A stretch of DNA of 64,000 nucleotides from an uncultured Candidatus Saccharibacteria bacterium (GCA_964608605.1 CAZSOS010000002.1:105569-169568), one strand, 5' to 3'. Counted from the stretch's first letter, positions 22,834 through 60,235 are shown. Notes: a model not told the origin generated them from the letters alone. A program made the numbers and translations.

Positions 22834-23292
22834 ATGGGAGCACGTCGTCCAAACTGCGAATGCACTGTCTGCGGCCAACGAATATATAGGAGACCTTTGC
22901 AAATTGAAGGTGGTCAAATTTTTTGTTCGCGCCAGTGTAGCGGTAAACATCAAAGAAAGGTGCGCGTCTGCGAAATTTGTAAGAAGGATTTCTTGGGTAT
23001 AAAGAAAAAATATTGTTCGCGGTCTTGTTCCAATAAATCTCGTACCGGTACAAAGTATAAAATCGGTAAACCGCACGACAAAGCGTTTTTGGTCAACAGT
23101 CTGAAGAAACAACTTGCTGACGCAAGAGGCGGTACATGTGAACGTTGCGGAGAGAAAAACTATGCCATATTACAGATCCACCATAAGCTAGAAAAACACC
23201 GTGGGGGCAACGATAAACCAGAAAATCTTGAATTGCTTTGTCCCAATTGCCATTATTCTAACCACTTTGGCTTTCGTTTGTTCAAGAGCTGA
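22834..23292 (+). CDS. HNH endonuclease with an N-terminal Cys-rich zinc-ribbon region
   Basis: The HNH motif is ILQIHHKLEKHRGGNDKPENLELLCPNCH. There are several CxxC pairs. The gene lies in an AT-rich segment (about 40% GC). Confidence 0.85.
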   Translation: MGARRPNCECTVCGQRIYRRPLQIEGGQIFCSRQCSGKHQRKVRVCEICKKDFLGIKKKYCSRSCSNKSRTGTKYKIGKPHDKAFLVNSLKKQLADARGGTCERCGEKNYAILQIHHKLEKHRGGNDKPENLELLCPNCHYSNHFGFRLFKS

Positions 23293-23320
23293 AATGATGC
23301 TAGAGTGCTCCTTAATAAAC

Positions 23321-23405
23321 GGAAGCGTAGCCAAGCGGTTTAAGGCACTTGTCTTGAAAACAAGCGTATCGAAAGGTACCGTGAGTTCGAATCTCACCGC
23401 TTCCG
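23321..23405 (+). tRNA. tRNA-Ser (anticodon TGA), type II
   Basis: Acceptor GGAAGCG/CGCTTCC. Anticodon loop CTTGAAA. Long variable arm. T-arm GTGAG/TTCGAAT/CTCAC. Confidence 0.85.
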
Positions 23406-23471
23406 CACTAAGAACCTGTTATCGGCATGACCCGAGTACCTAAGTTCGTAGATTTAAGCTAAAATAAGACC

Positions 23472-24251
23472 ATGAACCGAGGCTTTATTCAAATACCAAT
23501 TCTGATCGCCATACTTGCTGGTATAGCGGTATTTGGTGGCGCTGGGTATGTTGCATACGAAGCTAGTCAGAAGTCTTCAGTTCCAGCCGAAGAATCAGTA
23601 ATCGAATCGACTACTGAAGCATCACTTGGAGAATCTGACGACGTTTCCACCACTTCTGCAGTTAAGACAAATAACGATATCATACAGAAAGAAATGCCTG
23701 CGTCACCGAAAGCCATAGTGTCGCCAGTTATTCCTGCAGCCACAGCTCCTTCAACATCTACACCAACGCAGATATCACTTACTGCTCAAATTCAAACACC
23801 GACCTCTACTGCATCGACAACGGCAAGTGCACCTACACCAACCGTTGCGCCAGCAGTTACTCCAACTCCAAAAGTAAAAGTTACCGCAAGTCCTGAAAAT
23901 GTTGAGTATAATGGCACCTCAGTTATTAGTTGGGTTGCCACAGACGCCTTGTCATGCACACTAGGTTCTTCTCCTGTTCTTCTTGCTGTCACAGGCTCTC
24001 ACTCAGTCGAGCCAACTGACCCTGGCGACGACTGGACAAAGACAAATAAGAAAACCTACTCTATTACATGCACTGGTACAGGTGGTTCTGTTTCTGAAGA
24101 TGTCACGGTAACCGTTCAATCCTGGGTACCACCTGCCGGATATAAAGTCTTACCGTATGGCCAATGCACTAGAGCAACAGCACCTTGTATTACAGGACCC
24201 GGTTTTGGCACGATATGTGAATTTGGCGGTGGATGTAGCACCGGTGGCTAA
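23472..24251 (+). CDS. Secreted/surface protein: TM anchor, Ser/Thr/Pro-rich linker, C-terminal Cys-containing beta-sandwich-like module
   Basis: A low-complexity TSTPT linker, then YSITCTGTGGSVSEDVTVTV, the same C-x-G-x-GG module seen in the CTD proteins. Lower GC than the backbone. Confidence 0.55.
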   Translation: MNRGFIQIPILIAILAGIAVFGGAGYVAYEASQKSSVPAEESVIESTTEASLGESDDVSTTSAVKTNNDIIQKEMPASPKAIVSPVIPAATAPSTSTPTQISLTAQIQTPTSTASTTASAPTPTVAPAVTPTPKVKVTASPENVEYNGTSVISWVATDALSCTLGSSPVLLAVTGSHSVEPTDPGDDWTKTNKKTYSITCTGTGGSVSEDVTVTVQSWVPPAGYKVLPYGQCTRATAPCITGPGFGTICEFGGGCSTGG

Positions 24252-24257
24252 ATTGCC

Positions 24258-24740
24258 ATGTCGCTTCCTAGTATCACAATTCAAATATCTGCCGATAGTG
24301 TTGCTTGGTATGGGGCAATAATCGCAACAATTGCGGCGGTGGTTTCAATTTATAATGCTTGGCGTGACCGCTCTCGAATAGCTTTAGAGTTTGGTAAAAA
24401 CTTTCGTCGCGTCGAAGAATGGGATCAAGCGCTCTTCTATATCTCGATTGTGAACCGTGGACGGCGACCTGTAAAAATTGATAAGGCATGGGTGAAACTT
24501 TACGGATATAAAGGAGAGGCCTTAATAGCCGATAGCTTAGGTACACGCTTAGACCGCACACTGGACGAGAGAAATCCAAAAATTACCTTTTGGGCAAAAG
24601 AAAGCACTTTAGATACGAGTCGCATTTATTGCGTTTTTGCCTCAGACGAAACTGGAAGAGTATACAAGAGATACATCACGAATTTCCCAACATTTATGCG
24701 GCTATGGTGGGTCTTTAAAAAGAAAAGTGTAGCAAAGTAA
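24258..24740 (+). CDS. Hypothetical membrane-anchored protein (island gene)
   Basis: N-terminal TM segment. About 42% GC. No motif. Confidence 0.45.
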   Translation: MSLPSITIQISADSVAWYGAIIATIAAVVSIYNAWRDRSRIALEFGKNFRRVEEWDQALFYISIVNRGRRPVKIDKAWVKLYGYKGEALIADSLGTRLDRTLDERNPKITFWAKESTLDTSRIYCVFASDETGRVYKRYITNFPTFMRLWWVFKKKSVAK

Positions 24741-24871
24741 TTTTATTTACCCATGACCCACATGCCTCATTTCAACCTCTGAAAGTTTGCTGAAATACCT
24801 TTATGGTGCCTCACCGCCCTGGTACTGAACCCGAGTAGCCCGCATCGAAGATGTGATCCAGTGCCGTATAA

Positions 24872-25498
24872 TTGTCCATTATGGCCAAACGATCACAGAA
24901 CCTGAACCGGTACTTCCTCCAGGACATCAATCCGGTGGTGCGCTTCCTCATCGTCTCGGAAACGGTGAGCGCCGGCGCGGTCGGACTCCTGGGCCCGATC
25001 TTCGCCCTCTTCATCGATGACTTCATCATCGGCTCGAACGAAGCGGTGGTCGGTCTGGCGGCTGGCATCTTCCTCTTATCGAAGAGTCTCTTCCAGATAC
25101 CGATCGCGCATTACCTGGATCGGATCCGCGGCGAGAAGGATGACTTCTGGTTTCTCTTCGGCTCGACGGTGCTCACCGCCCTCATTCCCCTACTTTATCT
25201 GGTCATCGATACTCCGATGGAACTGTACCTGGTCCAGTTCGCGCTGGGTATCATCACCGCCGCCACCTATCCGTCTTTCATGGCCATCTTGACCCGACAC
25301 ATGGATAAAGGAAAGGAAGGCATGGAATGGGGCATCTATTTCACCCTGACCGACATCTCGAGCGCGGCCTTAGCCATCATCGGCGGCTTCGTGGCCGCCA
25401 CCGCCGGTTTCCCGGCACTCATCACCGCCGTCGTGATCATCTCGCTAATGAGCGCCGTCTTGATGGTACCGATAAGACCGTATCTCAAAAAGAGGTAG
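24872..25498 (+). CDS. Six-TM membrane protein (half-MFS-like)
   Basis: About six hydrophobic helices. A TATAAT sits 9 nt upstream of the ATG, so the transcript may be leaderless. Confidence 0.5.
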   Translation: MSIMAKRSQNLNRYFLQDINPVVRFLIVSETVSAGAVGLLGPIFALFIDDFIIGSNEAVVGLAAGIFLLSKSLFQIPIAHYLDRIRGEKDDFWFLFGSTVLTALIPLLYLVIDTPMELYLVQFALGIITAATYPSFMAILTRHMDKGKEGMEWGIYFTLTDISSAALAIIGGFVAATAGFPALITAVVIISLMSAVLMVPIRPYLKKR

Positions 25499-26373: not shown

Positions 26374-26634
26374 CTAGCCCTTCTTCATCGCCGCCATCAG
26401 GCGGGACTTCTTGCGGGAGGCGGTGTTAGCCTTGATGACGCCCCGCTTGTTGGCCTTGTCGATGGCCTGGTAAGCGGAGGACATGAGTTTCTCGGCCTCG
26501 CCCTTGGCGCCGGAAGCGATGAGCTTGCGCACCTCCTTGACCGCGTCGTTCATCTTGTTCTTGCGGCGCACGTTAAAAACACGCTTGCGCTCGGACGAAC
26601 GGATAGCCTTCTTTGCTCCTTTAGTAATTGCCAT
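26374..26634 (-). CDS. rpsT: 30S ribosomal protein S20
   Basis: MAITKGAKKAIRSSERKRVFNVRRKN... is canonical S20. Confidence 0.9.
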   Translation of the reverse strand: MAITKGAKKAIRSSERKRVFNVRRKNKMNDAVKEVRKLIASGAKGEAEKLMSSAYQAIDKANKRGVIKANTASRKKSRLMAAMKKG

Positions 26635-26670: not shown

Positions 26671-26700
26671 AAGCGGCGGGGCCTTCGGCCCCGCCGCTTT
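26671..26700. terminator. GC-rich hairpin terminator (copy 3 of the family) downstream of the CTD protein gene
   Basis: AAGCGGCGGGGCC-TTCG-GGCCCCGCCGCTT, identical core to the copies at 461 and 2109. Confidence 0.6.
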
Positions 26701-26714
26701 CCCGTCCTAGCTCC

Positions 26715-28238
26715 TTAGGTCTCCTGCACGTCCGGCAGCACCTTGACGGTGCGAGTGGCGCTGTCACCGCCGACGCAAGACAAAGTGAAAGTGACCTCTC
26801 CCAGCATCTGATGCGATACCGAACCGGTGCGGCCCGGGAGGGATGACAGGATAGTGGCCGCACCGGCCTTGATGGAACAACGGGCCGGGTCGTTGCTACC
26901 CAATTCCCAGCAGACGGGCACGTTCTCGCCTCTCAATACCAGATTTTTGCGGCACTCCGGCGACATGCTGGCATGATCGAAACTGGCTCCGGCGCCACCG
27001 CGTGTAGAGACGGTAACGCTGTCAGAGGCTTGCGTCGTGCCTTGTCCGTAGCACAGGAGTCCGAACGTGTGGCTGGTGTTGCCTATCGGCTCATCGAGCG
27101 TATTGTCGATGCCGGAGACGGCGTTGCCGGTGGCGAACCCGTAAAGCGGCGGCACGGCGGCGCAGGAAACAGTGTTAGCCGAACCACCTTGATTCCAACC
27201 CAGCTCGATCTGATCGGTAGGGTCGATGGTGAGGCTCTCGCTCCACGCCGTGGTACCGACCTTCCTCACCTGGAGATTGGCGGTCGGAGGCGGGTAGACG
27301 ACGGTCACGCTTTGCGTGGCCCAGTTGGCGGTCTCACCGCCTGGTCCGGCGCATTTGGCGGCGAAATTCCAGACACCGACGGTATCGAGAGTTTGGTAGA
27401 TACCGCTAGTACCACCACTGTTGGTCGATATGTCAGACGACCAACTGCCGCCAGGCGGCTGTCGTTGCAATCGACACGAAGTAGCGGGACCACCCACAGG
27501 TATATTAAGAATTTTATCCGGTCCGTAACTTACTAACACCTGACTGCCTTTCGTTATGGTGGCCGGTGAAACCGTCACCTTCGCTGAAGGCGCGGGAGGC
27601 GGACCGTATCGATATGCTGAAAAAGCCTTGCTGGTCGTCCCCCCAGGACCGGAACAAGTCACGGTATAGGTCATCCAAGAATCGTAAGCTGGCGTGTTCG
27701 CTGTCTGATAACCTGAGGTGGCCCCGTTACTTCCCGGAACGACGAAATTACTGCCCCAACAAGAAGTAGCGTTGTAACCATACCAGTACACTCGGAGACT
27801 TTGATTCCAATTCATGTAACGAGAAGTGGGAGCTTGGGCCCAACTGGCATCGAAGAGGTCGTGTTGAAAATCAATGACCGGAGCAGGAACAACGGGTGGC
27901 GGACAATAATACGTAGTGAAGTACAGCACCGGGGAATCGATGTCCCAGTTCTGCAACTGGGCCCAGCTTGAGGTATTGTGCGGCATGGTCACCGTCTGAG
28001 CCCCACCACAGGAACTTATGCCCCAGGGTCCGCCGGCGCTGGTGACCAAGCTGTAGTTCCAGGACTTGCAGGTGTTATTGACGTAGAAAGTGGCGTACAC
28101 GTAATTGCCGCCGGACACGCAGGATTGGCTGACCGTGAGATAAGGCTGCGGCTCGGCTTGGGCCGGAACCGGGTGTGACAAGGCTAAGACGCAAACGATC
28201 AATAGGAACGAGGCGCGAATGTAAGCGCGAACTGACAT
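26715..28238 (-). CDS. Secreted multi-module protein with a conserved C-terminal domain ending VLPDVQET
   Basis: Signal peptide, then repeated C-x-G-P-GG beta-sandwich-like modules. The last roughly 75 aa are homologous to the C-terminus of the 29928..31009 protein. Confidence 0.7.
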   Translation of the reverse strand: MSVRAYIRASFLLIVCVLALSHPVPAQAEPQPYLTVSQSCVSGGNYVYATFYVNNTCKSWNYSLVTSAGGPWGISSCGGAQTVTMPHNTSSWAQLQNWDIDSPVLYFTTYYCPPPVVPAPVIDFQHDLFDASWAQAPTSRYMNWNQSLRVYWYGYNATSCWGSNFVVPGSNGATSGYQTANTPAYDSWMTYTVTCSGPGGTTSKAFSAYRYGPPPAPSAKVTVSPATITKGSQVLVSYGPDKILNIPVGGPATSCRLQRQPPGGSWSSDISTNSGGTSGIYQTLDTVGVWNFAAKCAGPGGETANWATQSVTVVYPPPTANLQVRKVGTTAWSESLTIDPTDQIELGWNQGGSANTVSCAAVPPLYGFATGNAVSGIDNTLDEPIGNTSHTFGLLCYGQGTTQASDSVTVSTRGGAGASFDHASMSPECRKNLVLRGENVPVCWELGSNDPARCSIKAGAATILSSLPGRTGSVSHQMLGEVTFTLSCVGGDSATRTVKVLPDVQET

Positions 28239-28314
28239 TTGTAATCATTATCACCCATGGACAGCGCGCGATGAAGCCCGCGCTGTGGTTAACTCGGCTC
28301 GATCGTCGAGTGGA

Positions 28315-29883
28315 TCAGATCTCGTAGCGCGATAGTTTCCAACGGCCGCCTTCCCCTACCACTTCCCCGGTCTGAATGGAACCGTCCGCGCCGTATAACT
28401 TGCCCTCGCTTCGATTCCCGGCAGAAATGATGGAGGTCTGGTTCCAGATCGCCTGGACCCGGAGCATAGTGTCCAACTGATACCACATCAATCGCGGATC
28501 TTGGAATCTGGCGTGCGACAGCGGATGCAGCACGAAAGAGCTCGCGCTCATTTTCCTGGCGCCCATGACGCCGACGCCGGAGACGCTTTCATAGCAGAAC
28601 AAAGTGCCGGGCAGCCACGAGGCGTCATTGGTCAAGGTCTTGGCCGGACCCGGAACATAATTATAGATAGACCTCGAGGTCGCCAGCGTCTCGTCAAAAC
28701 CCAGGATATCGAGGGCGGCGCCGAAGAAGTAGGACACGTATTCCCCTTGCGGCACCAAGAACTGCTTGTCGACGGCATAGACATGTTTGTTCCGGATATC
28801 GTAATAAAAAGAACGCAGCACCGATCTGGTCGGCGTAAGGGAGATACGGGAGGTATCGACTATAACCGTATCGGAATCGGGATGCTCGGTCTCCAGGTAT
28901 TCCTGGAGGCGCGACACGTCCCCGAAAGCGAACGTGTATCTGGAATCTTCCGGCAACAGCACTAGATCGGGACCCAGCTCCAGGGCCGACTCCACGGCCA
29001 TGATCAGATCCCGATCCTTGGCCGCCTGGCCTTCCCGGTCACGGAGGCTGGAGATGGTGAAATCGGTGTCGACGGCGATGACGCGCTGGCCATCTAGAGT
29101 AGGTGGCGTCGGTACATATATAAGGTTCAAGATGAGAAGGACAGCTCCATAACCCAGCAGAGCGGGATTAGAGAGAACGCGCTCATGCAGACGCAGATAG
29201 ATCAGGCTGCCCAATAGCGCAGCGGCGGCAGTTAGACCGTAAAGACCGGCGAGCGCAGAGACCGGATCGAAGAGCGTGAACCTTCCGAAAGCCAATCCGA
29301 CGTAGCCATAGGTAACGTACGCATTGAGGTACGAACCCGGTCCCAGCACGAACAACGACAACGCGAGCGAACCGGCCAATTCCCCGATCAGCCAGGCTAG
29401 CGGAAATAATACCATCAAGATGAGCAGGGTCGCGCTTCGCTGCATCAGGTATCTTGCCGACAGGGCCGGCACTATCAGACCGGCCCCCAGCGACAAAGAG
29501 CAGGTGAACCAGAAAACGCCGATCATGAGGAGTTGGGCTAGGGCGCTCTCGACACCCATCCAGTTCATTGGGTACGAATACCAGAGCCAGAGCAGAGCGC
29601 CAGACGACTTCATCCAACCCACCAACAGCCCGAGTCCGGCGGCCGAAACAAAACTCTTCGATCGCTGGACCCCGATCAGGAACAACACTAGCCCCGGCAA
29701 TACCATGACACCGAGATAAGGAAAAGTAATGAGCGATAGACAGGCACCGCTCGCCACGAAGGCGACGACGGGGGAATTAAATGACCGTCCCTTTAACAGC
29801 TTCTTTGAAAGTGAGAGCGCGGTGCGGCTGAAGTTTGTTAAGGTCATGATGAGCGCGAAGCATGAAGCGATTTGACTAGCCAA
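28315..29883 (-). CDS. lnt: Apolipoprotein N-acyltransferase-like (multi-TM plus CN-hydrolase domain)
   Basis: Seven or eight N-terminal TM helices. The CN-hydrolase region has LVLLPEDS (Glu), DKQFLVPQGEYVS (Lys; compare E. coli HKRHLVPFGEYVP) and TLFCYES (Cys) motifs. Confidence 0.8.
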   Translation of the reverse strand: MASQIASCFALIMTLTNFSRTALSLSKKLLKGRSFNSPVVAFVASGACLSLITFPYLGVMVLPGLVLFLIGVQRSKSFVSAAGLGLLVGWMKSSGALLWLWYSYPMNWMGVESALAQLLMIGVFWFTCSLSLGAGLIVPALSARYLMQRSATLLILMVLFPLAWLIGELAGSLALSLFVLGPGSYLNAYVTYGYVGLAFGRFTLFDPVSALAGLYGLTAAAALLGSLIYLRLHERVLSNPALLGYGAVLLILNLIYVPTPPTLDGQRVIAVDTDFTISSLRDREGQAAKDRDLIMAVESALELGPDLVLLPEDSRYTFAFGDVSRLQEYLETEHPDSDTVIVDTSRISLTPTRSVLRSFYYDIRNKHVYAVDKQFLVPQGEYVSYFFGAALDILGFDETLATSRSIYNYVPGPAKTLTNDASWLPGTLFCYESVSGVGVMGARKMSASSFVLHPLSHARFQDPRLMWYQLDTMLRVQAIWNQTSIISAGNRSEGKLYGADGSIQTGEVVGEGGRWKLSRYEI

Positions 29884-29920
29884 ACCAGCAAAGCGCCGTC
29901 AGTGACGGCGCTTTGCTGGT
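29884..29920. terminator. Hairpin terminator
   Basis: ACCAGCAAAGCGCCGTCA-GTGA-CGGCGCTTTGCTGGT. Confidence 0.6.
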
Positions 29921-29927
29921 TCACTCT

Positions 29928-31009
29928 TTAGGTCTCCTGGATGTCCGGCAGCACCCGGATGAGCATGCTACTGACGTTATTGCCGTCCTCGCAGTCGAGC
30001 GTGATCACCGTTTCGCCGATGGCCGTGAAGTTAGTGGTACCGGAATCCCGACTGAACGGACCAGCGATGACCACGTTACCAGCGCGAAGCACGCAGTTGG
30101 CGGGATCGCTGGTACCGACGTTCCAATCTATCGGCACCTCGGTCCCCTTCCGCACGATCACCGAAGGCGGTACCGTACTGCCTCCGCCACCATCGCAGCT
30201 GGTATTGGAGACGCACGCGTCCTTGCCGTACTCGACATCCACCTCAGTGTAAGCGGAAGCCACTGACTTCACCGCGTCCGGCAGGCCAGCGCAATCTATC
30301 CAGAACCTAGTCTTCTCCGATAGCGGCCCCGTAGGGTGACCAGAGGAATTATTCCGCGCTTTATTCCCACTCCAATTGATCGGTGACGCTAATTGACGGG
30401 CCGTACAGGTAGTCGTATTGGTAGAGTCCCAAGTTAGGCTTGAGGCTTCTGAATATTTCACCTTAGGTGGATTTGCCCAAATACTGACCGTAGGATTAGG
30501 TGGCGGAGGTGGGGGCGGAGGAGGTGGGGGCGGAGGAGGTGGAGCGCAACTTGGAGCCGTGAAAGTAGTCATCAGCTGGTCATGTTCCGGCCAAGACAAG
30601 GTCCAGTGCTGCACCTCTATGGTGTAGGTCTGATTATGCGGAACGACCACGGTGGTGGGACCTCCATACCTATTTATGCCAGTAACGATGCCGGCCTGAT
30701 GCACGATCAGGTTCAGCCAAGGTTCATACGTGGCCACGAAACCGGACATACTGATACTTAAGACGACGCGATCACTATCATAGCAATACGCGGACACGGA
30801 AGTGCGCGGCGGTTCAGCCACCGTGTAACAGTTAGCGGCGTTATATTCGCAAGGATGAGTATCGCCACTAAACGATGAAGCTGGTGACGTCGCGGTGTGG
30901 GCCGACGCGATATCGGCCGTCCACAGAACCATCGCCATGGTCAGCAAGAACACGCACCCCGCCGCGCGCGCTCCCCTTCCTTGATCCGTCATGTTTGAAA
31001 TAAACCGCA
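29928..31009 (-). CDS. Secreted protein with a P15 polyproline linker and the conserved C-terminal domain ending VLPDIQET
   Basis: Signal peptide (start chosen at MRFISN, 31009). An (APPPPPPPPPPPPPPPNP) tract is encoded by a GGNGG repeat. The C-terminal 75 aa are homologous to the 26715..28238 protein. Confidence 0.7.
30488..30535. repeat. GGNGGN simple-sequence tract encoding the polyproline linker
   Basis: ggtggcggaggtgggggcggaggaggtgggggcggaggaggtggag, read on the minus strand as CCN codons. Confidence 0.7.
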
Positions 31010-31152
31010 TGATATTTTTTAAGTGATAGGACTTTAGCCTAATACTAATGCATGAGGGCGGAAGTTCGGACCTCAAGCTGTGAATAATATCTTCAATTGT
31101 CCACAACCGAGAGGATTGTGCATAAATGAGCCCGCCCGTATAGTTTCTAATA

Positions 31153-32340
31153 ATGACAGTCAATAAAATACTCATATCAATAGCGTCGGTGATCGCGCTC
31201 ATTTTAATAGCGGCGGGAGCTTTCTGGTTCTGGCTTAATTACGCGCCAGCGCAGAACGCGCCGGAAACCGGAGACTCCCTGGAACACAACACCGAGCCCA
31301 TAACCATGGTCCCCGAACCGCTCACCGGCAATAGTCCGATATCTGACCTGGCCGACTTCGTCGCCGGCGCCATGGACGCCGAGGGCAAGTTCTTGCTGAG
31401 TTATCGTTGCGAAGCCCAGAACTGCGAACCAGTACCCTCCACCGAGGCCACGGCCTTCGGTTATTCCCTGCTGGGACTTATCGCCGGCGCTGACGCTGGT
31501 AACGACATAGAGCTGCGCCGCCAGGCCGACCTAGCTATCACCCGCGCGCTTAGGTTGTGCGGACAGGATGCCAACTCCTGCTTGTCGAACTTCTTCGCCC
31601 TCGAAGAATACTACGAACGCACCAACGCCAGTTCTTATAAGCAGGCGCTGGAAAAGGCCGGTCAACTGCTACTTACCACCAACGCCAGCCGCCTGGACGC
31701 CGTGGTGGGAGCCTTGATGTTCTACCCTTACAAAAAAATGGAGAGTCTCTACAAGATCACGGATGACGAAAGCTATCTGGAACTTCTGACTGTCGCCGCC
31801 GATACGGCTCTGAACAACTGGCCAGACCGGATCGAAGGCACCGCTATCTATGAGACTGCCGCCGGTCAGAAAGTGAATTACAACCATCTGCTGATAGCCA
31901 GCACCTTATTCATCCCCGCTTACAGAGCCACGAATGATGAGAAATATCTGCGCGCCGCGGCCGATCTCTTCAAGCGATCGGAGTTGGAGCAACATGCCTT
32001 GGGCCTGCGCTCCGAAAGAGGCGTCACGCTGCTTCTTAACAGCATCGAGGGTCTCTTGGATCTCTCCAAGATCGAGACCTTAAGCCAAGCCGACAGGGAC
32101 GCCTTCAGATCCTCGGCCGCGCTGATCATGAAGGACCTGTTCGGCTGGCAGTACGATGCTGCCGATCGCGCCATTGGCGATGGCACCGGTGGCCTCTTGA
32201 CTGGGGTGTCCGACGCTACCGAACCGGCCGGAGTGAACTACAAGAACATCAACCTCAACGGCTGGTTCGCCTATCTGCTCGCGGACCCTTCCATGGCCGA
32301 TATCGACCTGGTCATCTACAAAGCGCCGACCGGGTTCTAA
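31153..32340 (+). CDS. Membrane-anchored protein, paralog 1 (helical-repeat, possibly (alpha/alpha)-barrel-like)
   Basis: N-terminal TM segment. Shares LSYxCxxxxxxCxP, CxxDxxxCxxNFFxLxxYY and recurring D-x-[KS]-YL motifs with the 33070..34146 protein. Confidence 0.55.
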   Translation: MTVNKILISIASVIALILIAAGAFWFWLNYAPAQNAPETGDSLEHNTEPITMVPEPLTGNSPISDLADFVAGAMDAEGKFLLSYRCEAQNCEPVPSTEATAFGYSLLGLIAGADAGNDIELRRQADLAITRALRLCGQDANSCLSNFFALEEYYERTNASSYKQALEKAGQLLLTTNASRLDAVVGALMFYPYKKMESLYKITDDESYLELLTVAADTALNNWPDRIEGTAIYETAAGQKVNYNHLLIASTLFIPAYRATNDEKYLRAAADLFKRSELEQHALGLRSERGVTLLLNSIEGLLDLSKIETLSQADRDAFRSSAALIMKDLFGWQYDAADRAIGDGTGGLLTGVSDATEPAGVNYKNINLNGWFAYLLADPSMADIDLVIYKAPTGF

Positions 32341-32432: not shown

Positions 32433-33011
32433 ATGATACGGCAAATTACCGGGACGGTGGTGTCCATGGGAGACAACTTCTTAGTGATAGACGTACGCGG
32501 TATCGGCTACCAGATCTTCACGCCGCGATCCTCGGCTTTCACCCTAGGCAGCGGCATCACCCTGCACACTCACCTAGCGGTGCGCGAGAACGCTCTGGAT
32601 CTCTATGGCTTCACCGTTAGAGACGACCTCTGGCTTTTCGAGCGCCTGATCGATCTGCCGAAGATCGGACCGAAGTCCGCCCTGCAGATAATGAGCCAGG
32701 CTGACAGCGCCATGATCCGCGAAGCCGCGATCAACAACGACCCCTCTCGCCTCTCAAAGATGTCAGGCATCGGCAAGAAGAGCGCCGAGAAGATCGTGGC
32801 CGGACTCAAGGACAAATTCGAAGGCCACGCGATGATCGCCGGCATGGAGACCGCGCCGACCAACGAGGCCTCCGACACCATCGACGCCCTCATCGCGCTG
32901 GGCTACCCGGCCCCTGAGGTGCGGCGCGTGGTCCTCGAAGTACTAACCGAACATCCCAATTCCGTTTCCGCCTCGGAGATCGTCAGGATGTCGCTGCGGC
33001 GTCTGTCCTAA
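32433..33011 (+). CDS. ruvA: Holliday junction branch-migration protein RuvA
   Basis: MIRQITGTVVSMGDNFLVIDVRGIGYQIF...is canonical RuvA domain I. Both HhH motifs are present. Confidence 0.9.
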   Translation: MIRQITGTVVSMGDNFLVIDVRGIGYQIFTPRSSAFTLGSGITLHTHLAVRENALDLYGFTVRDDLWLFERLIDLPKIGPKSALQIMSQADSAMIREAAINNDPSRLSKMSGIGKKSAEKIVAGLKDKFEGHAMIAGMETAPTNEASDTIDALIALGYPAPEVRRVVLEVLTEHPNSVSASEIVRMSLRRLS

Positions 33012-33069: not shown

Positions 33070-34146
33070 ATGAAAAAAATTCTCTTCCTTATCCTTATCA
33101 TCGTCGTGCTGGCAACGGCCGGAATTGTCATCGCCTGGCAACAGCGTAAAGTCGTGGACGATGCTGTTACGGCCGCGCCCGCGACCGCCGGCGAGCTGGC
33201 CGCGAAGACCATCAAATTCATCGATGCCGCGCTTGATCCCGCGACGGAACGATACGATCTATCCTATACATGCAGCGAAGTGCAGAAGACCTGTAAGCCG
33301 CGCCACAACCCGGACATTCCACCGCACATGGGTTACGCCATCATCAGCCTGAGAGAGGTCGGACTAGCGACCGGCGATACCAGATTGGTCGAAAAATCGA
33401 AGACCATCCTGCACGATGCCATAAATAAGTGCGCCGACGATCCGCGCTACTGCGAATGGAATTTCTTCCCCCTCCATCATTACTACAAGGCCACCGGCGA
33501 CCAGAAATATCTCGACGCCATGCTGGCGGTCTCCGGGAACGTTACCGCGCCCAGGCCGGTCAGGGATCTCATCAAGGCCAACATACCAGTGAAATGGTGG
33601 CGGCTTTATGACGCCACCGGCGACGAGAAGTACCTCAAGCAGCTCACTGATCTGGCCGACGAACAGCTGCGGGTGTTCCCAGCCGAGAGACTTAACGATG
33701 ACCTGGTCTATCGCGACGGCCAGACCGACGTGCGTTCATACGACCTGCCGATGATCTGGGCGGTGTACATGCCGGCCTGGTTCGCCAGCCGGGACGAGAA
33801 ATACCTCGCGCCGGCGCGGGAATTCTTCGACGCCACCGACCTGGCCGCCAATACTTCCCTTTTCTTCGATGTCACCGCGACCGGAAACCTGCTGAAGGGA
33901 GTGGAGTCTCTCTTGAACGCCGCCGAGGCCATCCCCGAGCGCCGGGAGGCATATCGGAAAGAAGCGTTGGACATATTGCGCGTAGTCCTCCAAGAACGCC
34001 TGGACACGCCGGATCGAACCCTGGTAAACGGCGACCATGGCCTGTTGGTATCCCCCCATGAAAAGGAGACCAATATCCAAGGCTGGCTGACCTATACCCT
34101 GCTGGAGCTAGGCGACGAACCCTTGAAGCTGGAGGGCCTCTGGTGA
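33070..34146 (+). CDS. Membrane-anchored protein, paralog 2 (helical-repeat)
   Basis: Paralog of the 31153..32340 protein. Motifs GDQKYLDAM, GDEKYLKQL and RDEKYLAPA recur every 50-60 aa. Confidence 0.55.
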   Translation: MKKILFLILIIVVLATAGIVIAWQQRKVVDDAVTAAPATAGELAAKTIKFIDAALDPATERYDLSYTCSEVQKTCKPRHNPDIPPHMGYAIISLREVGLATGDTRLVEKSKTILHDAINKCADDPRYCEWNFFPLHHYYKATGDQKYLDAMLAVSGNVTAPRPVRDLIKANIPVKWWRLYDATGDEKYLKQLTDLADEQLRVFPAERLNDDLVYRDGQTDVRSYDLPMIWAVYMPAWFASRDEKYLAPAREFFDATDLAANTSLFFDVTATGNLLKGVESLLNAAEAIPERREAYRKEALDILRVVLQERLDTPDRTLVNGDHGLLVSPHEKETNIQGWLTYTLLELGDEPLKLEGLW

Positions 34147-35639: not shown

Positions 35640-37802
35640 ATGCCAATTAACACCCCTTACGCCCGCGCCGCCAAAAATTTATTGCCTTTGTTATTGATAA
35701 CCTCCCTCCTGTCGCCATCACTGCTTCCGGCTAGGATCCTAGCCGCGTCTAGTATCGACAACGGCTCCGAAAGTGCCGGAGCTAAAGGCAGCAGTCCGAG
35801 CGACAGCGGTAGCTATAGCGGCAGCGACTCAGGGACCACCGGGTTCGAGGGCTCACCTGAGGTAGGCCCCACAGCGGCGGCTCAGACATCAAACGACGCG
35901 GTGGCGACCGAAGTGGCTGCCACCGCCGGCCCCGGCATCAGCGTGACGCCGGTCGACGCCAGTTCTCCGCACGCTCCAGCGCCGGGAAGTAGCGTCAATG
36001 TCAACGGCGTACAAATGGGCGTGGAGGACGCGCGCGGGGCCTTGGACGCCATAAGCAAGTCCAATGGAGTAGCCGACGTCCAGGCGACCCTAGCCGCTTG
36101 GGCCGACCCTAAAGGCACCATCGAAGCGGGACAGGTCGTCGGACCGTATGGGCACGTCGGCCTCCCGGAGGCAGTGGCTCGAGAAACCGCCACGGTGCAG
36201 GCCGGAATAAACGCTATCTCCTTTGCCAACTCACTACCTACCGGAGTATTGGATCCAGGTCGGCTTGGTTACGACCCGAACAGCTGGAGCAACATCCAGT
36301 CACGACTGGAAGTGATCAACGTGGTCAGTGCTCCGGTGAGCAGGACTCAGACCGGACAGATCGAATACGCTAACGTAGTGGGAGTCGGCAAGGACGCTCA
36401 GGATAAAACTCAGACAAGTCCAGAGTATGAAACCAGGGTCCATACCAACGCGGACGTAGCCGCCAGAATGGCCGCGGCCGGTTTCAATCCTGACGGCTCT
36501 TTGCAAAGAGCGGTAACCATAGATTACGGGAATATAATGGGCGTCACCAAAGGAACCGTCAAAGATTATCAAGCCAATGGCACTCTCGACAGCAAGATCG
36601 CCATGGAGCAGAACATGATCGGCATGGCTCTCAACTCCAGCATAGATAAAGCCCAACTAGGACAAGTCGACCCTAACAGCATAGAGAATCACGGCAAGGT
36701 CGATAACCGAGACACCAATGGTGCTTTCGCTAAATCCCTAGACGACACGATCACCCCTGGTTTATGGGTGGACAGCAACCTCACCGGTAAGCAGGAACTG
36801 GCCATGAGTTATTACGCCAATATAGTCGGATATACTGCGAATCAAGCTGCCGGTATCATAGGTAATTTTAAAGCGGAGAGTAACCTGGACCATCTGGAAG
36901 AAGCGGCTGGCCGGGAGCGTTCCAGTGGCCTGGCTCAATGGAACGCTGCCGCGGCTGCCGGCGAACGCAGACAAGCACTGGAGGATTACGCTGGAGTGAA
37001 ATTTTCCGAGCAACTCGTTAACGGCAGACACACCTCAGGTCCGGGGGCTTTCACGCAACTAGCGTTCACCGTGGCTGAAATGGAAGGAAGATTGACGGGA
37101 CATAAAGACCCTCAGTCAGAAGCTGTGGGCCGCAGTTTCAACGCGAATCCGAATATGACGGCCGCTCAAGCTGCTGAAGAATTCCAAAATGGCTTTGAAC
37201 GGCCAGCTGACCGCTCTCACTCTATTGCCGCCAGACAGAACGGGGCAAGCGAAGCATTGACCGCGTACAACAACCTGGACCCAGGTCGGGAAAACTTCAC
37301 TACCGGTAGCGTATCCGGGCAGCCAGGACAAACCGGTGGTCAGGGCGGCAAGACCGGCAGTGACCAACCCTCGAGGCAAAGCGGGGGTTTTGGTCAGGTG
37401 GAATTCGGAGTCGGTGGATTTCGTGTTACCGTCGACACTGACAAGATCGCCGACCTATTTAGCAATATGTTCTCCGGGTCGGGAGGAGATGGAGGAGCAC
37501 CGGAATACACCGATCTGTCATTCACCGGTAGCGATGATACCGGAAATTCCCTGGAGCTGGAACGGGTCGATATCACCCCGGGCAGGCCCGGCATCTGCCC
37601 CGCCGGACCGGCCGAAGAAGGATTTTCATTCAACATAAAATTCCTCAACAAAGAACACACTGATCAGGTCTACAGCTGTAAGGGTCAGACCACGGCGGAC
37701 AACTTCAATATAGTCACGGCTTATCTCAAGAATTACGAAACCGATAACGTGCAAGATGTCGACGTACTGAGCAAGATGCGGGTCACTTCGGCCAAGTATT
37801 GA
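35640..37802 (+). CDS. Giant secreted protein (720 aa) with a lysozyme-like (phage-tail-lysozyme-type) peptidoglycan hydrolase domain
   Basis: The leader is MPINTPYARAAKNLLPLLLITSLLSPSLLPARILAASS. The internal domain has GIIGNFKAESNLD...GLAQWN..R...L, as in the phage tail lysozyme family. The C-terminus has a YSCKGQTT module. Confidence 0.65.
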   Translation: MPINTPYARAAKNLLPLLLITSLLSPSLLPARILAASSIDNGSESAGAKGSSPSDSGSYSGSDSGTTGFEGSPEVGPTAAAQTSNDAVATEVAATAGPGISVTPVDASSPHAPAPGSSVNVNGVQMGVEDARGALDAISKSNGVADVQATLAAWADPKGTIEAGQVVGPYGHVGLPEAVARETATVQAGINAISFANSLPTGVLDPGRLGYDPNSWSNIQSRLEVINVVSAPVSRTQTGQIEYANVVGVGKDAQDKTQTSPEYETRVHTNADVAARMAAAGFNPDGSLQRAVTIDYGNIMGVTKGTVKDYQANGTLDSKIAMEQNMIGMALNSSIDKAQLGQVDPNSIENHGKVDNRDTNGAFAKSLDDTITPGLWVDSNLTGKQELAMSYYANIVGYTANQAAGIIGNFKAESNLDHLEEAAGRERSSGLAQWNAAAAAGERRQALEDYAGVKFSEQLVNGRHTSGPGAFTQLAFTVAEMEGRLTGHKDPQSEAVGRSFNANPNMTAAQAAEEFQNGFERPADRSHSIAARQNGASEALTAYNNLDPGRENFTTGSVSGQPGQTGGQGGKTGSDQPSRQSGGFGQVEFGVGGFRVTVDTDKIADLFSNMFSGSGGDGGAPEYTDLSFTGSDDTGNSLELERVDITPGRPGICPAGPAEEGFSFNIKFLNKEHTDQVYSCKGQTTADNFNIVTAYLKNYETDNVQDVDVLSKMRVTSAKY

Positions 37803-38444: not shown

Positions 38445-38589
38445 CCCGCCGCGGACCCTGGACCATAAAAGACCCCTACCTTAGGGGTCTTTTCTTATCT
38501 CCCGTTCATCGATAGCCATTCTTGTCTCTATCGCGTATGTGTATAAGGAGCGGGTATTTCCAGAGCCTCAGCATACAATATGTACATAT

Positions 38590-41500
38590 ATGTTAATCAC
38601 AACCATGGCACCCCGCTTTTTATCCGTATTATTAATAATCTCCCTCCTCTCTCCCTCACTCCTACCGTCAGTGGTGTTCGCCCAAAGTAGCGGCGATAAG
38701 CAAGAAGCTGGCGATGAGGGTGAAGACTCCGCCGCGGCAGCAGAAGCGGCGGCGGAAGCTGCCGCCCAAACGGTGAATGAAATGGCCAGTCTGGCGGCCG
38801 GACTGGAAGGGCGTTCCTTTACTGCTTCGTCAGTAGGAGGAGCCAATTTCGATGCCAACAATCCTTCCGTCAACATAACCGCCGACACTGGTGAGACCTT
38901 CACCATGACCACCGATCAGGCAGTAGCGGCGGCGGGAGCGATCGGCGACGCGCAAGCCGCTGGTATCAGTACCTCCAACAACTCCAATTCCCCGGGAGTG
39001 GACGTGGCCGCCACTCTGGAGGCACATTCCCAGGGCGAGACGGGCGTGGTCGTGGGATCCATGTCCGGTGAAATAGGGACCCCCGCCGCGGTGGCTCAGG
39101 CGGAGATAGCGGCGGCCAGCCGGCAAAGCTCGGTCAGCGCCCTAAGCGACGCGGCTTTTGATTCAAGGTTCGCGGGTGCGGCTGCTATTCAAGGGAGTGA
39201 TCTCAACCAGGCATTGGCCGCAGCCTATGGGCAGCTAGCCAATAGCGCCAAGCAAGCTGGTATCTTAACCCTGGGCGGCACTACCCAAGTAGGACCGACC
39301 GGCAACGTAAATGCTCAGTACACCATGAACCAGGCCCTGGTTGCCTCATACCAACAATACGCGAACGTACTAGGTCAGTCTGGTAACCTCGGTCTTTCAG
39401 GCACCACCAACACTTCCTACTCTTACGATAGGTCGACCGGGTCATGGGTCGGCGACCAAAACGGACGAACGTATACGACTCAAGAAGTGGTCGGCGGCAA
39501 CAAAGACTTCAGAGACGCGGCCGCGGAATTCGAAAGGACCAACAACAGGTCATACGTCGATTTCTTCGAAGAAGCTCTGGAAAAGGACTCTGGACGTTTC
39601 CAAGTCTCTTTAGACTTTAGGACGAATCAAATAATCGCGACAGATATTGTTACGGGCCAGATAACCGGCACTAATCTGACGACCGGCACGACCGAGAATC
39701 TGGGCGGAATTTTCCAATCATACGACTCCACTACCGGGACAAATCTGGGATACACTCCACCAGCTGGTACTTCCCTGGCTTTCACCGCTACTGGTCTTGG
39801 CAATTATCAAGTGATCAACGCCAAAGCCGAGCCTCCCAAAGAATCCTTTGTGGGTGCCTATGACACTAAACTTTCCAACTCTGCGGCTAGATCTATGCTA
39901 GATGGTAACGTTACGGTAAAAGACGGAGTAAGCTTCGAGGGAGCACGCGCCAGCACCGTAGCCACAGCTAACCAACTAGCTAAAGATTGTAACTGTGTAG
40001 TACCCATAACTTCCGTGACCGATGGAAAGCATGCCGGCGGTAAAAACTCTCATGGAAATGGTGCCAAATTCGATGTCAGTGACTGGCGATCTCTTGAGTT
40101 CACCTCGTACGTAACCGGCGGAAAAAATGGTTGGACTCAAACCGGCACGCGTGGTGGTGGCCACGGAGGACCGATATACACCAACCCTGATTTCCCTGAG
40201 GTTAATATAGTATACGAGAAAAGTTACCATCACTTTGATATACAAGTCGTCGGAGACGTCGGTAAGGCTGGTCTTGAGATCACTTATGCAACTGGTTCAA
40301 TATTCGAAGGATCACTTCACGCGGACCTGCCCCCAGGGGAGTCATTGAGCACTAACTTTTCAAACATACCCGGAGGAGATGAAACTTCACCCGGATCTCA
40401 AGGCGGATCAAACCCTACCCAACCTGGCAACGTATCACCCGACAGTGGTAAAAGCCTGCCCGATATCATGGCTGATGGAATGGACAGGGTCGGTATCGAT
40501 CCCAACAGCGGGATCGGAAGAGGCGTGCTGGGTTTGGCCGCGGCGGCCGACAATCTGCTCGGCCGGTTCGGTATAGATTTTAATGACCTGATGAGCGGCG
40601 GCGGAGCGGGTCCAGGAAATGAAACGGATGCCCAGGGTGCTGACGCTATGACCTGCCCCTACCCCCTTTCCTGCGACGATAACGACCTGGGAGCGTCGGT
40701 CATCACCGCCATCGCTCCAAACTTAGATGTCGTAAGTTGGGTACTTCGAATTTGGAACCTGGTATCAAACAGCGAAGACAAGGAAGTATCGGTGCCAGCA
40801 GGATATGCCCCCACGCCTGATGCCGTACTGGTAGAGATCGTGACCCATCTGTCTGACAACGCCATTGAAGTACATCGTCCCGACATCGAAGCCACCTTGG
40901 CCAATCCTCGTCTTTACTACACCGAAAAACAATACGAGCAACTCGTCGCTTTACTGAGCGAAGAACCGATACTTACCGACCAAGAAGGTTCCATCATCTA
41001 CTCGAACGGCCTCTATTCCCCGCCGGTCGTTGACGGCCGATACGTGGAGGGTTCTCCTAAGTACGTTTACGTGCTCAAGCAGATCGATGAGAGTGGTAAC
41101 GAATTGCCTGCCACCGATGACAGCGAACCCGGAGGGTTGCTAAACCGGGTGTTGAAGCAGGTATTTGGTGACACTTCCCCGTTTAAAACGGACTCGATCG
41201 AGACCGTATCCTACCGCTTGATCGATCCGGACATGGATACTCCAGCAGATGAATACTATGACTACCTCTTTACCTTGAAGGATGGCAGCGAAAGAGCGGT
41301 GGCGGTGCCGCAATTCTCCTCAGTGGCTCATATGGCGAATAAATTCCGCGACATCGGCTACCAAGGAACGCCTCTGGATATATTGATCATGGCCACGGAG
41401 ACAAACTTGCCTCCAGAAAGAGGTTTGATCGGCAAGATATCGGACTGGATCGGCTCTTTGGTCGGACGCTTCATGCCGAGTTTGACCGAAAACCAAACAA

Positions 41501-42264
41501 CGACCACTTTGCCAGAAACAAAGCGAGGATATTCCGCTGACAACATAGCCAGTGTTTTCATCTACCCTAATGCCGCCGTAGACTGTCCAAACATCGAAGG
41601 ATACCAAAATGGTTACATGTACACTGCCACCATTAACGACCCCGATCGTCCCGGATATATGACCCTGGTCACGGAAGGAAGGTGCGGAAGCGGCGGCGAA
41701 GAGGACTTCTTGGCGGACGCGCTGCAACAGCTGGAGAGCCGCTGGGGATTGGCCGGAACCATAGCCGACTCGACCATGAATAAGGTCAGATTCCGATTTG
41801 AAGAAACTCCATATAAACCAGGTTTGGCCATCGCGTATGTAGGCACCGATGTTCCTTCTGGATCCACGGACCCCGAACCAGCGACTCCAGACCCTGAACC
41901 TGCGGCCACGTCCACCACCCAACTCCCCAACCTCACCAACACCATCACCTTTGAAGTGAAGGCGGTGGGAAGCGAAGGAAAAGTGCTGGCCGACTGGACT
42001 CAAGCGGAGCGGATAACCGTGGCTCCAGGAGTACAGCTATACTTCCGCTGGAATGGGACCGATTACCAGCAGTGTCTTCCCTTCCTCAACGACAACGGCA
42101 ACTACGCGTTGACGGTGCGGAACCGAGCCATGACCACGGGCAACACCGAGAGCGAGGGATACAATATCAACGAAAGGAGTGGCGTGTACCGCCTTGAATG
42201 TGGCGGACAGAGAAACAATGAATTCGGGGTGGATGCTAGGGAGATCGAAGTAGAGGTGAGATAG
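38590..42264 (+). CDS. Giant secreted protein (about 1220 aa) with a putative M15/LAS-type metallopeptidase (VanY/endolysin-like) domain
   Basis: Leader MLITTMAPRFLSVLLIISLLSPSLLPSVVFAQSS is paralogous to that of the 720-aa protein. There is an Ala/Gly/Thr-rich N-terminal third. KHAGGKNSHGNGAKFDVS and YEKSYHHFDIQ resemble the H-x-D / WHF zinc motifs of M15 peptidases. The C-terminal module is YRLECGGQ. The start is ambiguous: 38539 GTG, 38590 or 38605 ATG. Confidence 0.6.
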   Translation: MLITTMAPRFLSVLLIISLLSPSLLPSVVFAQSSGDKQEAGDEGEDSAAAAEAAAEAAAQTVNEMASLAAGLEGRSFTASSVGGANFDANNPSVNITADTGETFTMTTDQAVAAAGAIGDAQAAGISTSNNSNSPGVDVAATLEAHSQGETGVVVGSMSGEIGTPAAVAQAEIAAASRQSSVSALSDAAFDSRFAGAAAIQGSDLNQALAAAYGQLANSAKQAGILTLGGTTQVGPTGNVNAQYTMNQALVASYQQYANVLGQSGNLGLSGTTNTSYSYDRSTGSWVGDQNGRTYTTQEVVGGNKDFRDAAAEFERTNNRSYVDFFEEALEKDSGRFQVSLDFRTNQIIATDIVTGQITGTNLTTGTTENLGGIFQSYDSTTGTNLGYTPPAGTSLAFTATGLGNYQVINAKAEPPKESFVGAYDTKLSNSAARSMLDGNVTVKDGVSFEGARASTVATANQLAKDCNCVVPITSVTDGKHAGGKNSHGNGAKFDVSDWRSLEFTSYVTGGKNGWTQTGTRGGGHGGPIYTNPDFPEVNIVYEKSYHHFDIQVVGDVGKAGLEITYATGSIFEGSLHADLPPGESLSTNFSNIPGGDETSPGSQGGSNPTQPGNVSPDSGKSLPDIMADGMDRVGIDPNSGIGRGVLGLAAAADNLLGRFGIDFNDLMSGGGAGPGNETDAQGADAMTCPYPLSCDDNDLGASVITAIAPNLDVVSWVLRIWNLVSNSEDKEVSVPAGYAPTPDAVLVEIVTHLSDNAIEVHRPDIEATLANPRLYYTEKQYEQLVALLSEEPILTDQEGSIIYSNGLYSPPVVDGRYVEGSPKYVYVLKQIDESGNELPATDDSEPGGLLNRVLKQVFGDTSPFKTDSIETVSYRLIDPDMDTPADEYYDYLFTLKDGSERAVAVPQFSSVAHMANKFRDIGYQGTPLDILIMATETNLPPERGLIGKISDWIGSLVGRFMPSLTENQTTTTLPETKRGYSADNIASVFIYPNAAVDCPNIEGYQNGYMYTATINDPDRPGYMTLVTEGRCGSGGEEDFLADALQQLESRWGLAGTIADSTMNKVRFRFEETPYKPGLAIAYVGTDVPSGSTDPEPATPDPEPAATSTTQLPNLTNTITFEVKAVGSEGKVLADWTQAERITVAPGVQLYFRWNGTDYQQCLPFLNDNGNYALTVRNRAMTTGNTESEGYNINERSGVYRLECGGQRNNEFGVDAREIEVEVR

Positions 42265-57690: not shown

Positions 57691-57699
57691 GGATACATT

Positions 57700-58036
57700 A
57701 TAGCTTAATTGGGGACAACCCGCCCTGATGGTTCTTTTGAAACAAACGCTCTTTATTATTAGGGCTGTGGATTTGGGTATAAGTCCACGATACGGCCACG
57801 AATAAGGTTATTTTTACGAGATTTTTCCCCAGTCGGAACATCAAAGCCCGAGGATAATCTTGTTGATAAGCGCACCGCGGGAAAAAGACAGAAGTTAAGA
57901 CAGTTTTTCCCCTGATCATCACGGAGATATCACCGAGTTCTTATACTCGTTGTCCACGGAATCTGGTGGATTTTCCACAGCTTTTCAGATGCCGCTATCC
58001 ACAGGCGGGAGATTTGTGTCCGATCGGATTATAAGA
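57700..58036. promoter_or_regulatory. Candidate oriC: cluster of DnaA-box-like 9-mers between dnaA and dnaN
   Basis: TATCCACA (57996-58003), TTTTCCACA (57971-57979), TTGTCCACG (57950-57958), AAGTCCACG (57781-57789) and TGTGGATTT (57766-57774), all in an AT-richer spacer. Confidence 0.6.
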
Positions 58037-58058
58037 AAACACCCCGTATCGGGGTGTT

Positions 58059-59438: not shown

Positions 59439-59686
59439 GACCGATGCTTAGACGCGTTCCTGGTAGGAACAGTGCTATGAATTATACTCGCCCCGGTCGG
59501 GCTGTAAACTTTTCGCTCGCTTTCCACAACGAGCGGACCGCCAAGTCGAATGCGGCTGTCAATGTGGACAAACATGGGGACAGCTTCCGCCTGAATTTTA
59601 AAGCGCGGCAACTACCCCTTGTCGGGGTTCGCGGTTTTGACTTTATTCGTCGCCAGTGTATAGTAGTGAAAATTTAAAGTAATCGT

Positions 59687-59836: not shown

Positions 59837-59894
59837 TCGGTTGCGCCCGGGGTCCCGTTTCTTCGGATCATCGGCCGCGTTCATGCCCTAGAAT

Positions 59895-60230: not shown

Positions 60231-60235
60231 ACCCT

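Follow-up and report, generated by a model that had tools for sequence, protein, structure and literature searches.

The tail-bearing terminal immunoglobulin (Ig)-like domains described here constitute a large, previously undescribed protein family of Patescibacteria, carried by exported proteins that end in a short conserved peptide directly before the stop codon. The family was recognised in a stretch of 64,000 nucleotides from an uncultured Candidatus Saccharibacteria bacterium (GCA_964608605.1 CAZSOS010000002.1:105569-169568), referred to below as the window, in which two genes, A and B, encode such proteins on either side of a gene for an Lnt-like N-acyltransferase. A and B are read here as surface proteins whose terminal docking domain would present a free C-terminal peptide, the Lnt-like gene not being a general reader of that tail, a view in which we place about as much belief as doubt. 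Much of bacterial diversity belongs to the Patescibacteria (the candidate phyla radiation), which for the most part rely on host-cell contact; to our knowledge, their surface proteins are almost entirely unannotated.

The C-terminal domain (CTD) common to A and B covers their last 76 residues with 36% identity and 61% positives (BLASTP, E=1e-14) and ends in VLPDVQET in A and VLPDIQET in B, in each case directly at the stop codon and with no hydrophobic segment after the motif in either protein. An initial annotation of the window had described this alignment of about 75 residues up to VLPD[VI]QET-COOH, together with the absence of a C-terminal transmembrane (TM) helix, and both observations hold. 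It had also taken the rest of the two proteins to be unrelated apart from generic C-x-G-x-GG beta modules, which was not borne out: residues 28-103 of A and 65-141 of B give a second BLASTP alignment over 78 amino acids (aa) with 32% identity (E=4e-5), and residues ~174-246 of B, in the numbering of its 360-aa form, match the hidden Markov model (HMM) of the CTD as an internal Ig-like module (domain E=8e-5). The internal beta modules of A and B are weaker copies of the Ig-like module of the CTD. Both proteins have a Sec-type signal peptide, read by eye, that of A spanning residues 1-28 with a predicted cut between AQA and EPQ and that of B with a predicted cut between ASA and HTA. In A, the signal peptide is followed by Ig-like modules and the terminal tail-bearing domain, its N-terminal domain being the one common to B; in B, the signal peptide, the domain common to A, a Pro15 linker, an Ig-like module, and the terminal tail-bearing domain follow one another. 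Neither protein has a lipobox, and a lipobox scan of the 64-kb window gave no candidates. No third copy of the CTD was found in the window by tblastn with either CTD; a nine-residue look-alike, RILPDLQEQ (61013-61039), sits in an overlapping spurious open reading frame (ORF) and was rejected as chance.

The pair also has counterparts in related loci (numbered L001 onward). Over its C-terminal 190 aa, A shows 61-62% identity with the second CTD gene of L007, L015, and L017, defining a "second-position" paralogue type, and the C-terminal 190-218 aa of B show 33-39% identity to the first CTD gene of L005, L007, L015, and L017, a "first-position" type. Because these positional orthologues match each protein far better than A matches B (~35% CTD identity), the tandem pair predates these lineages, and A and B are old paralogues. 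The N-terminal halves of the two window proteins are lineage-specific.

A HMMER search of 1.84 billion representative proteins with a three-sequence CTD profile recovered 232 protein clusters at E≤1e-3, 52 of them at E≤1e-10, with protein lengths of 85-1054 aa; in nearly all of the 232 clusters, the match lies at the extreme C-terminus. The search therefore places the CTD well beyond the A/B paralogues, and the initial description of a conserved C-terminal domain on otherwise different exported proteins is supported, the domain being family-defining. The genomes that carry it are metagenome-assembled genomes (MAGs) of Patescibacteria, namely, Kaiserbacteria, UBA6201, and MAGs labelled Saccharibacteria. 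Exactly phi-phi-P-x-phi-[Q/F/Y]-[E/D]-[T/S]-COOH (phi, hydrophobic residue) ends 133 of the 150 top matches, with proline at position -6 in 130/133, glutamate at -2 in 126/133, and threonine or serine at -1 in 117/133. A role of the QET tail in a Thr-Gln ester or isopeptide bond was considered and dropped since phenylalanine or tyrosine replaces the glutamine in 36 of the 133 members. When an HMM was built from family sequences, all 142 of the 142 terminal copies extended to its last position, and the tail was found in none of 135 internal Ig-like copies of the same proteins. No model in Pfam or NCBIfam covers the domain, as the initial claim of novelty had it; A, B, and 57 CTDs gave only scattered weak matches to generic Ig families.

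An AlphaFold2 model of the last 78 residues of A, made from a 17-sequence alignment, predicts a seven-stranded Ig-like sandwich with a predicted local distance difference test (pLDDT) of 87.5, in which the last strand ends at ...VKVL and the final six residues, P-D-V-Q-E-T, form a coil of lower confidence. Structural comparison assigned the model to the generic Ig-like fold. An N-terminal hydrophobic segment is present in 119 of the 133 members. Pfam domains (E≤1e-3) were detected in only about 10 of 99 full-length members, all of them CARDB or PKD beta sandwiches, and the same scan found no enzyme domain among the 99. In one clade (L012-L014, L024-L026), the proteins are minimal: their 160-190 aa consist only of a TM anchor and a conserved motif ahead of the end domain. 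As the smallest members consist of anchor and CTD only, the CTD is better seen as a functional end-piece than as an export tag on cargo, and the lack of enzyme domains together with these minimal members speaks against a tag on diverse cargo. The CTD is the constant head of an anchor-stalk-head protein, and the likening to sorting tags of the type IX secretion system (T9SS) or of the PEP-CTERM kind, which had been suggested from the window, is a poor fit in view of the missing enzyme cargo and the anchor-plus-CTD members.

The gene between A and B encodes about seven N-terminal TM helices and then a nitrilase-like domain, in agreement with the initial description of a multi-TM CN-hydrolase with Lnt-like Glu, Lys, and Cys motifs. 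The protein is 17-18% identical to Lnt of E. coli and P. aeruginosa and matches TIGR00546 (lnt) at E=4.5e-12 with 45.9 bits, below the curated cut-off of 132.9; it has no Pfam match at E≤0.1, CN_hydrolase (PF00795) included, and as a single sequence gave no phmmer match in PDB. A profile of its family matches Lnt in PDB at E=2e-10, and a second profile search added at least about 18 further clusters. The AlphaFold model (pLDDT 87; predicted template modelling score, pTM, 0.88) was matched by Foldseek to 24 Lnt chains at E ~1e-12 with template modelling scores of 0.65-0.71 over ~520 columns, which amounts to a full-length match to E. coli and P. aeruginosa Lnt. The motifs LLPEDSR (Glu300), DKQFLVPQGEY (Lys361, Glu369), and FCYES (Cys418) align with PE (Glu267), K-x-x-LVP-x-GE (Lys335, Glu343), and CYE (Cys387-Tyr-Glu) of E. 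coli Lnt, and Glu300, Lys361, Glu369, and Cys418 are invariant in 28 homologues. E. coli Lnt has a C-terminal TM helix, which is absent from the model of the window protein, where the chain ends in beta strands. Neither Lgt nor LspA was seen in the 64-kb window, in which Pfam scans of multi-TM proteins gave YibE/F and ZIP, and no reports on Lnt in Patescibacteria were found in the literature. Sequence and model indicate that the middle gene encodes a genuine, divergent Lnt-family acyltransferase, which is probably active.

On the minus strand of the window, the ORF map gives three co-directional genes between rpsT and ruvA in the order B, Lnt-like gene, A. The intergenic gaps are 44 nt (B to the Lnt-like gene) and 76 nt (the Lnt-like gene to A), the sole strong terminator-like hairpin follows A, and no hairpin comparable to it lies between the three genes. 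These features suggest a single transcription unit, and the three genes are probably co-transcribed in the source genome.

The linkage of the Lnt-like gene to the CTD was followed on 33 fetched loci with flanks of ≤10 kb, to which HMMs of the two proteins and of neighbouring genes were mapped. The collection scans for the CTD used only the pattern V[KR]VLPx[FIV]QET, and owing to this narrow pattern, the genome and metagenome loci are biased to rpsT-adjacent orthologues. All loci lie in one conserved block of SpoU, Mur ligase, ruvA, a variable interval, rpsT, a small TM protein, ruvX, and pilMNO, and in nearly all related loci one to three CTD genes occupy the variable ruvA-rpsT interval. Among 20 distinct loci found through the CTD, the Lnt-like gene lies within the fetched flanks in five (L005/18, L007, L008, L009, L016) and is missing from 10 with adequate flanks (L010-L014, L025, L030-L033), five being too short to judge; in L032 and L033, SpoU abuts the Mur ligase where the Lnt-like gene would sit. 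Conversely, four of seven loci found through the Lnt-like gene carry CTD genes (the window, L001, L005, L027) and three have none nearby (L003, L006, L028). Judged within these flanks, the Lnt-like gene is not a constant neighbour of the CTD, nor the CTD of the Lnt-like gene; genomes without an Lnt-like gene at the locus may carry one elsewhere.

Where both are present (the window, L001, L005, L007, L008, L009, L016, L027), the Lnt-like gene is co-directional with the CTD genes and 0-4 kb from them, in at least four different positions: before a TPR gene (with a gap of only 2 nt in L001), after rpsT, between CTD genes, and before the Mur ligase. It is sandwiched between CTD genes only in the window among the loci mapped. 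This pattern of positions is equally compatible with selection for co-expression and with shuffling within the conserved block, and the adjacency itself may be inherited gene order because both genes belong to one block (Mur ligase, ruvA, rpsT, ruvX, pilMNO). Neither extreme contemplated in the initial annotation, a CTD confined to the two tandem paralogues or one without linkage to the Lnt-like gene, was encountered in full: the CTD extends beyond the pair, and some linkage exists in Kaiserbacteria-like lineages, but it is not constant. The dedicated processing or attachment system that was then proposed has little support. Across relatives, the Lnt-like gene is only one of several interchangeable envelope genes of the ruvA-rpsT interval, and most likely it is not a general reader of the tail.

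Other genes take the place next to the CTD in relatives. In 12 distinct loci, a TPR gene immediately precedes the first CTD gene on its upstream side; its membrane-anchored product of ~266 aa matches TPR_14 with 36.8 bits (cut-off 23.5) and is far more conserved than the CTD proteins, with 45-57% identity and ~75 invariant positions across eight lineages. In two further loci (L031, L033), the gene directly upstream encodes a secreted Peptidase_S41, and the adjacent CTD proteins carry the tail variant ...IPV[VI]FDS. In L033, this gene stands between two CTD genes, mirroring the arrangement of the window. With only 24% identity between the two peptidases, the S41-CTD pairing appears to be old; S41 was found in the FDS-tail clade only and in none of the other loci. 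The place immediately upstream belongs to family f8, uncharacterised proteins of ~400 aa, in L010, L011, and L017, where the CTD gene concerned has no SVE motif (described below). Pairs of f12 and f8 genes, both families being uncharacterised and f8 having a faint PD40 match, recur near the Mur ligase (L001 1-5532; L007 2292-5101; L008 2393-5012; L010 7997-9199; L017 250-1479).

Taken together, these results show that each protein has a signal peptide or membrane anchor and, behind it, a variable series of Ig-like beta-sandwich modules that closes with a specialised end-piece, which has two invariant cysteines and a short unstructured tail. In the model that we favour, this end domain would be the working head, a docking module distal to the membrane anchor, as suggested by the stop codon that directly follows the tail and by the smallest members, which are only anchor and domain. 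An envelope partner may then bind the free C-terminal tail peptide. Free C-termini are classically recognised by two kinds of module, TPR and PDZ, so the TPR and PDZ genes upstream in relatives are suggestive of tail docking.

Several points weigh against this model. The docking role of the domain and the ligand role of its peptide are both inferred. The proximity of the Lnt-like gene to CTD genes, co-directional and in several positions in seven to eight lineages, could reflect selection for co-expression, and the locus sample is biased by the narrow pattern, with the presence of the Lnt-like gene judged only within flanks of ≤10 kb. Moreover, the presence of TPR tracks an N-terminal motif of the adjacent CTD protein, F-x-SVE-[FL]-GL-x-E-x-SP-x-G-xx-GG-x-A-x-PASG, which B lacks; as the adjacency follows this motif and not the tail, the TPR protein may read the N-terminus. 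The 64-kb window holds no TPR homologue and no S41 homologue, and the tail is kept there all the same.

The Lnt-like enzyme could instead be a dedicated processing or attachment enzyme, which would acylate the CTD proteins or transamidate them to lipid and so fix them in the membrane. Overall this is unlikely, if well short of negligible, and it may hold for the sub-clade of the window. It would suit the tightly spaced co-directional genes ahead of one strong terminator, the short distances in eight loci including the window in at least four positions, and an atypical enzyme that scores below its family cut-offs and lacks the C-terminal TM helix, next to A and B without a lipobox in a window where no lipobox proteins were seen. 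A precedent is provided by AatD, an Lnt homologue that acylates the neighbouring non-lipobox proteins CexE/Aap (PMC7943197). Yet the enzyme is missing from 10 CTD loci with adequate flanks, including the two where SpoU and the Mur ligase abut, three loci carry it with no CTD gene nearby, and one conserved housekeeping block holds all these genes, so that their proximity may be inherited. The chemistry is not tied to a C-terminal tail either, since Lnt and AatD acylate an N-terminal amine and not a C-terminal carboxylate; the predicted mature N-termini of A and B (EPQ..., HTA...) are neither conserved nor glycine, and the canonical Lnt active-site motifs are all kept, consistent with ordinary lipoprotein N-acylation. 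A broader proposal makes the tail a new Patescibacteria-wide sorting or attachment signal without a TM helix, its free carboxyl being read by clade-specific envelope machinery, and we regard it as rather improbable. In this clade the reader would be an Lnt-like transacylase, and TPR or PDZ-S41 proteins would take that role in others; the surface fibres would be anchored covalently or non-covalently, and the anchored fibres may serve these episymbionts in host contact; no literature on sorting signals in the candidate phyla radiation was found.

More doubtful still is a tail that acts as a cleavable C-terminal sorting signal, removed by a processing protease or a transpeptidase before maturation or wall attachment, much as with T9SS CTDs or sortase substrates except that a TM helix is missing. 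The S41 gene with PDZ domain and signal peptide upstream of the tail gene in L031 and L033, the age of that pairing, the Ig-like sandwich that T9SS CTDs likewise place at the very C-terminus, and the extreme conservation of the last residues would all accord with cleavage. S41 is, however, limited to the FDS-tail clade and absent from the window and the other loci, there is no match to Por_Secre_tail or another sorting-signal model, diverse cargo is absent, no sortase-like gene was seen nearby, and the minimal members would be left with almost nothing once the domain was removed. The least probable explanation in our estimate dispenses with a dedicated partner: the end domain would do no more than close a surface fibre as its final Ig-like structural module, with a tail that serves folding or stability, for example, by capping the edge of the sandwich, and the neighbouring genes would be unrelated housekeeping envelope genes. 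The generic Ig-like fold, the housekeeping syntenic block, and the lack of a universal partner gene are in its favour. It is opposed by the tail itself, which the model places beyond the final strand as a coil of lower confidence, is the most conserved stretch of the domain, is fixed to the stop codon in 133 of the 150 top matches, and is missing from internal copies of the module (0/135). The features of the locus are collected in the table.

Table. Features of the A/B locus in the window and of upstream genes in related loci (positions in the window unless a locus is named)
Feature	Position	Strand	Description	Basis
Gene A	26715-28238 (coding without stop 26718-28238)	-	507-aa exported protein	ORF
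Terminal Ig-like domain (CTD) of A	26718-26957	-	~80 aa, two conserved Cys	HMM domain E=1.1e-24
Tail of A, PDVQET	26718-26735	-		Coding positions
N-terminal domain of A common to B	27930-28157	-	A residues 28-103	BLASTP, tblastn
Lnt-family membrane CN-hydrolase, divergent	28315-29883	-	510-522 aa; start 29847 in public gene call	
Gene B	29928-31010 (coding without stop 29931-31010)	-	360-aa exported protein; alternative start 30992	ORF, BLASTP
Terminal Ig-like domain (CTD) of B	29931-30164	-		HMM domain E=3e-24; BLASTP vs A
Tail of B, PDIQET	29931-29948	-		Coding positions
Pro15 linker in B	30498-30542	-	15 proline codons in a row	
N-terminal domain of B common to A	30588-30818	-	B residues 65-141	BLASTP, tblastn
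rpsT (ribosomal protein S20)	26374-26634	-	Downstream anchor of conserved interval	Pfam annotation of orthologues, HMM map
Terminator-like hairpin	26671-26699	-	13-bp stem with 11 G-C pairs, then T-run; 16 nt past A stop codon	
ruvA	32433-33011	+	Upstream anchor of the same conserved interval	Pfam annotation of orthologues, HMM map
TPR gene	L001 9485-10282; L005 3458-4258; L007 6156-6956; L008 7892-8713; L012 8864-9709; others			
Peptidase_S41 (C-terminal processing protease family), secreted	L033 8577-9878 (also PDZ domain); L031 8862-9851		Directly upstream of CTD gene	

The start of B had been placed at 31009, which is out of frame; an ATG at 31010 (MRFISN...) or at 30992 (MTDQGRG...) fits. 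The public gene call for B (P0029) covers a 114-aa C-terminal fragment only, and B is therefore under-annotated in the source record. Upstream of B, two paralogous (29% identity) membrane-anchored helical-repeat proteins are encoded on either side of ruvA (31153-32340, 33070-34146), with weak sub-threshold matches to GH88 and GH127-type (alpha/alpha) barrels. Their genes occupy the same position as the TPR gene of relatives and were considered as its replacements, but this was rejected as hhalign gave no similarity. A 259-aa exported protein (23472-24251) has one Ig-like module with the C-x-G-x-GG signature and no tail, and weakly matches A residues 142-204 (E=0.057). Its gene belongs to a stretch (22834-25498) that also comprises a Zn-ribbon/HNH-like ORF, tRNA-Ser, and a truncated transporter-like ORF; relatives do not have the genes of this stretch between ruvX and rpsT.

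Elsewhere in the window, a 720-aa secreted protein with a Phage_lysozyme2 domain (E=2.9e-15) is encoded at 35640-37802, and behind it, 38485-42261 encodes a secreted protein of 1258 aa that matches nothing in Pfam; these products could be cell-wall-active or host-directed factors. At 62150-62932, a 260-aa Cys-rich exported protein has a sub-threshold T4SS_pilin match (E=1.7e-4, 22 bits vs. a cut-off of 26.6). Reading by eye puts dnaN, dnaA, rnpA, and yidC at 56599-60967, and the chromosomal origin region therefore probably falls within the window. In the clade with minimal CTD proteins, six to eight tandem paralogous Cys-rich proteins of ~400-500 aa (family f30, no Pfam match) are encoded right after rpsT (L012 10630-19173; L013 4661-13960; L014 7109-14632; L025 9611-18373).

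A simple sequence rule, namely, a terminal two-Cys Ig-like domain, P-x-phi-Q-E-T, and stop, picks out hundreds of exported Ig-stack proteins for which there has so far been no curated family model. Their ruvA-rpsT address and their neighbours provide candidates for holding or processing them in the envelope: the membrane-anchored TPR protein, the PDZ-S41 protease, and the divergent Lnt. Should the tail prove to be a signal for sorting or docking, Patescibacteria would gain their first described example, and the function of an orphan Lnt subfamily would become testable.

Among known systems, the type A CTD of T9SS (Por_Secre_tail) likewise forms an Ig-like beta sandwich of ~80 aa, sits at the very C-terminus of Sec-exported proteins, and lacks a TM helix. 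It differs in that the present family gives no HMM hit to Por_Secre_tail or CHU_C, its top structural matches include no T9SS CTDs, the only cargo consists of Ig-like modules, minimal members are anchor plus domain, and the motif occupies the very last residues. In the PEP-CTERM, LPXTG, and GlyGly-CTERM signals, a C-terminal TM helix and then a basic tail come after the motif, whereas here the stop comes directly after the tail in the window and in 133/150 top matches. The likeness of the CTD to the sulfur carrier SoxY is one of generic fold only; the SoxY arm is GGCGG with a reactive Cys, and the biology is unrelated. The middle gene shares with Lnt (TIGR00546, PF20154 + PF00795) the polytopic N-terminal membrane domain, the nitrilase-like domain, and the catalytic motifs, and differs by its 17-18% identity, sub-threshold scores, lack of a C-terminal TM helix in the model, Patescibacteria host, and neighbours without a lipobox. 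AatD of the Aat system of enteric pathogens is similar as an Lnt homologue adjoining secreted non-lipobox proteins (CexE/Aap) that it could lipidate, and it recognises a conserved N-terminal Gly after signal-peptide cleavage (PMC7943197). The predicted mature A and B begin with Glu and His instead of Gly, Aat-type transporter genes are absent here, and the linkage to the CTD is not conserved across genomes.

Readers of a free C-terminus are well known, as in the EEVD motif of Hsp70/Hsp90 with TPR clamps, peroxisomal targeting signal 1 (PTS1) with PEX5, and the PDZ domains of Ctp/Prc. The QET and FDS ends are unlike the known ligands of such modules, adjacency of the TPR gene correlates with the N-terminal motif, the window has neither putative reader, and binding of the tail would be by analogy. 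What the family has in common with these systems is a motif fixed at a free C-terminus; in relatives, the adjacent upstream gene, for an extracytoplasmic TPR protein (12 loci) or PDZ-S41 (two loci), may encode a reader.

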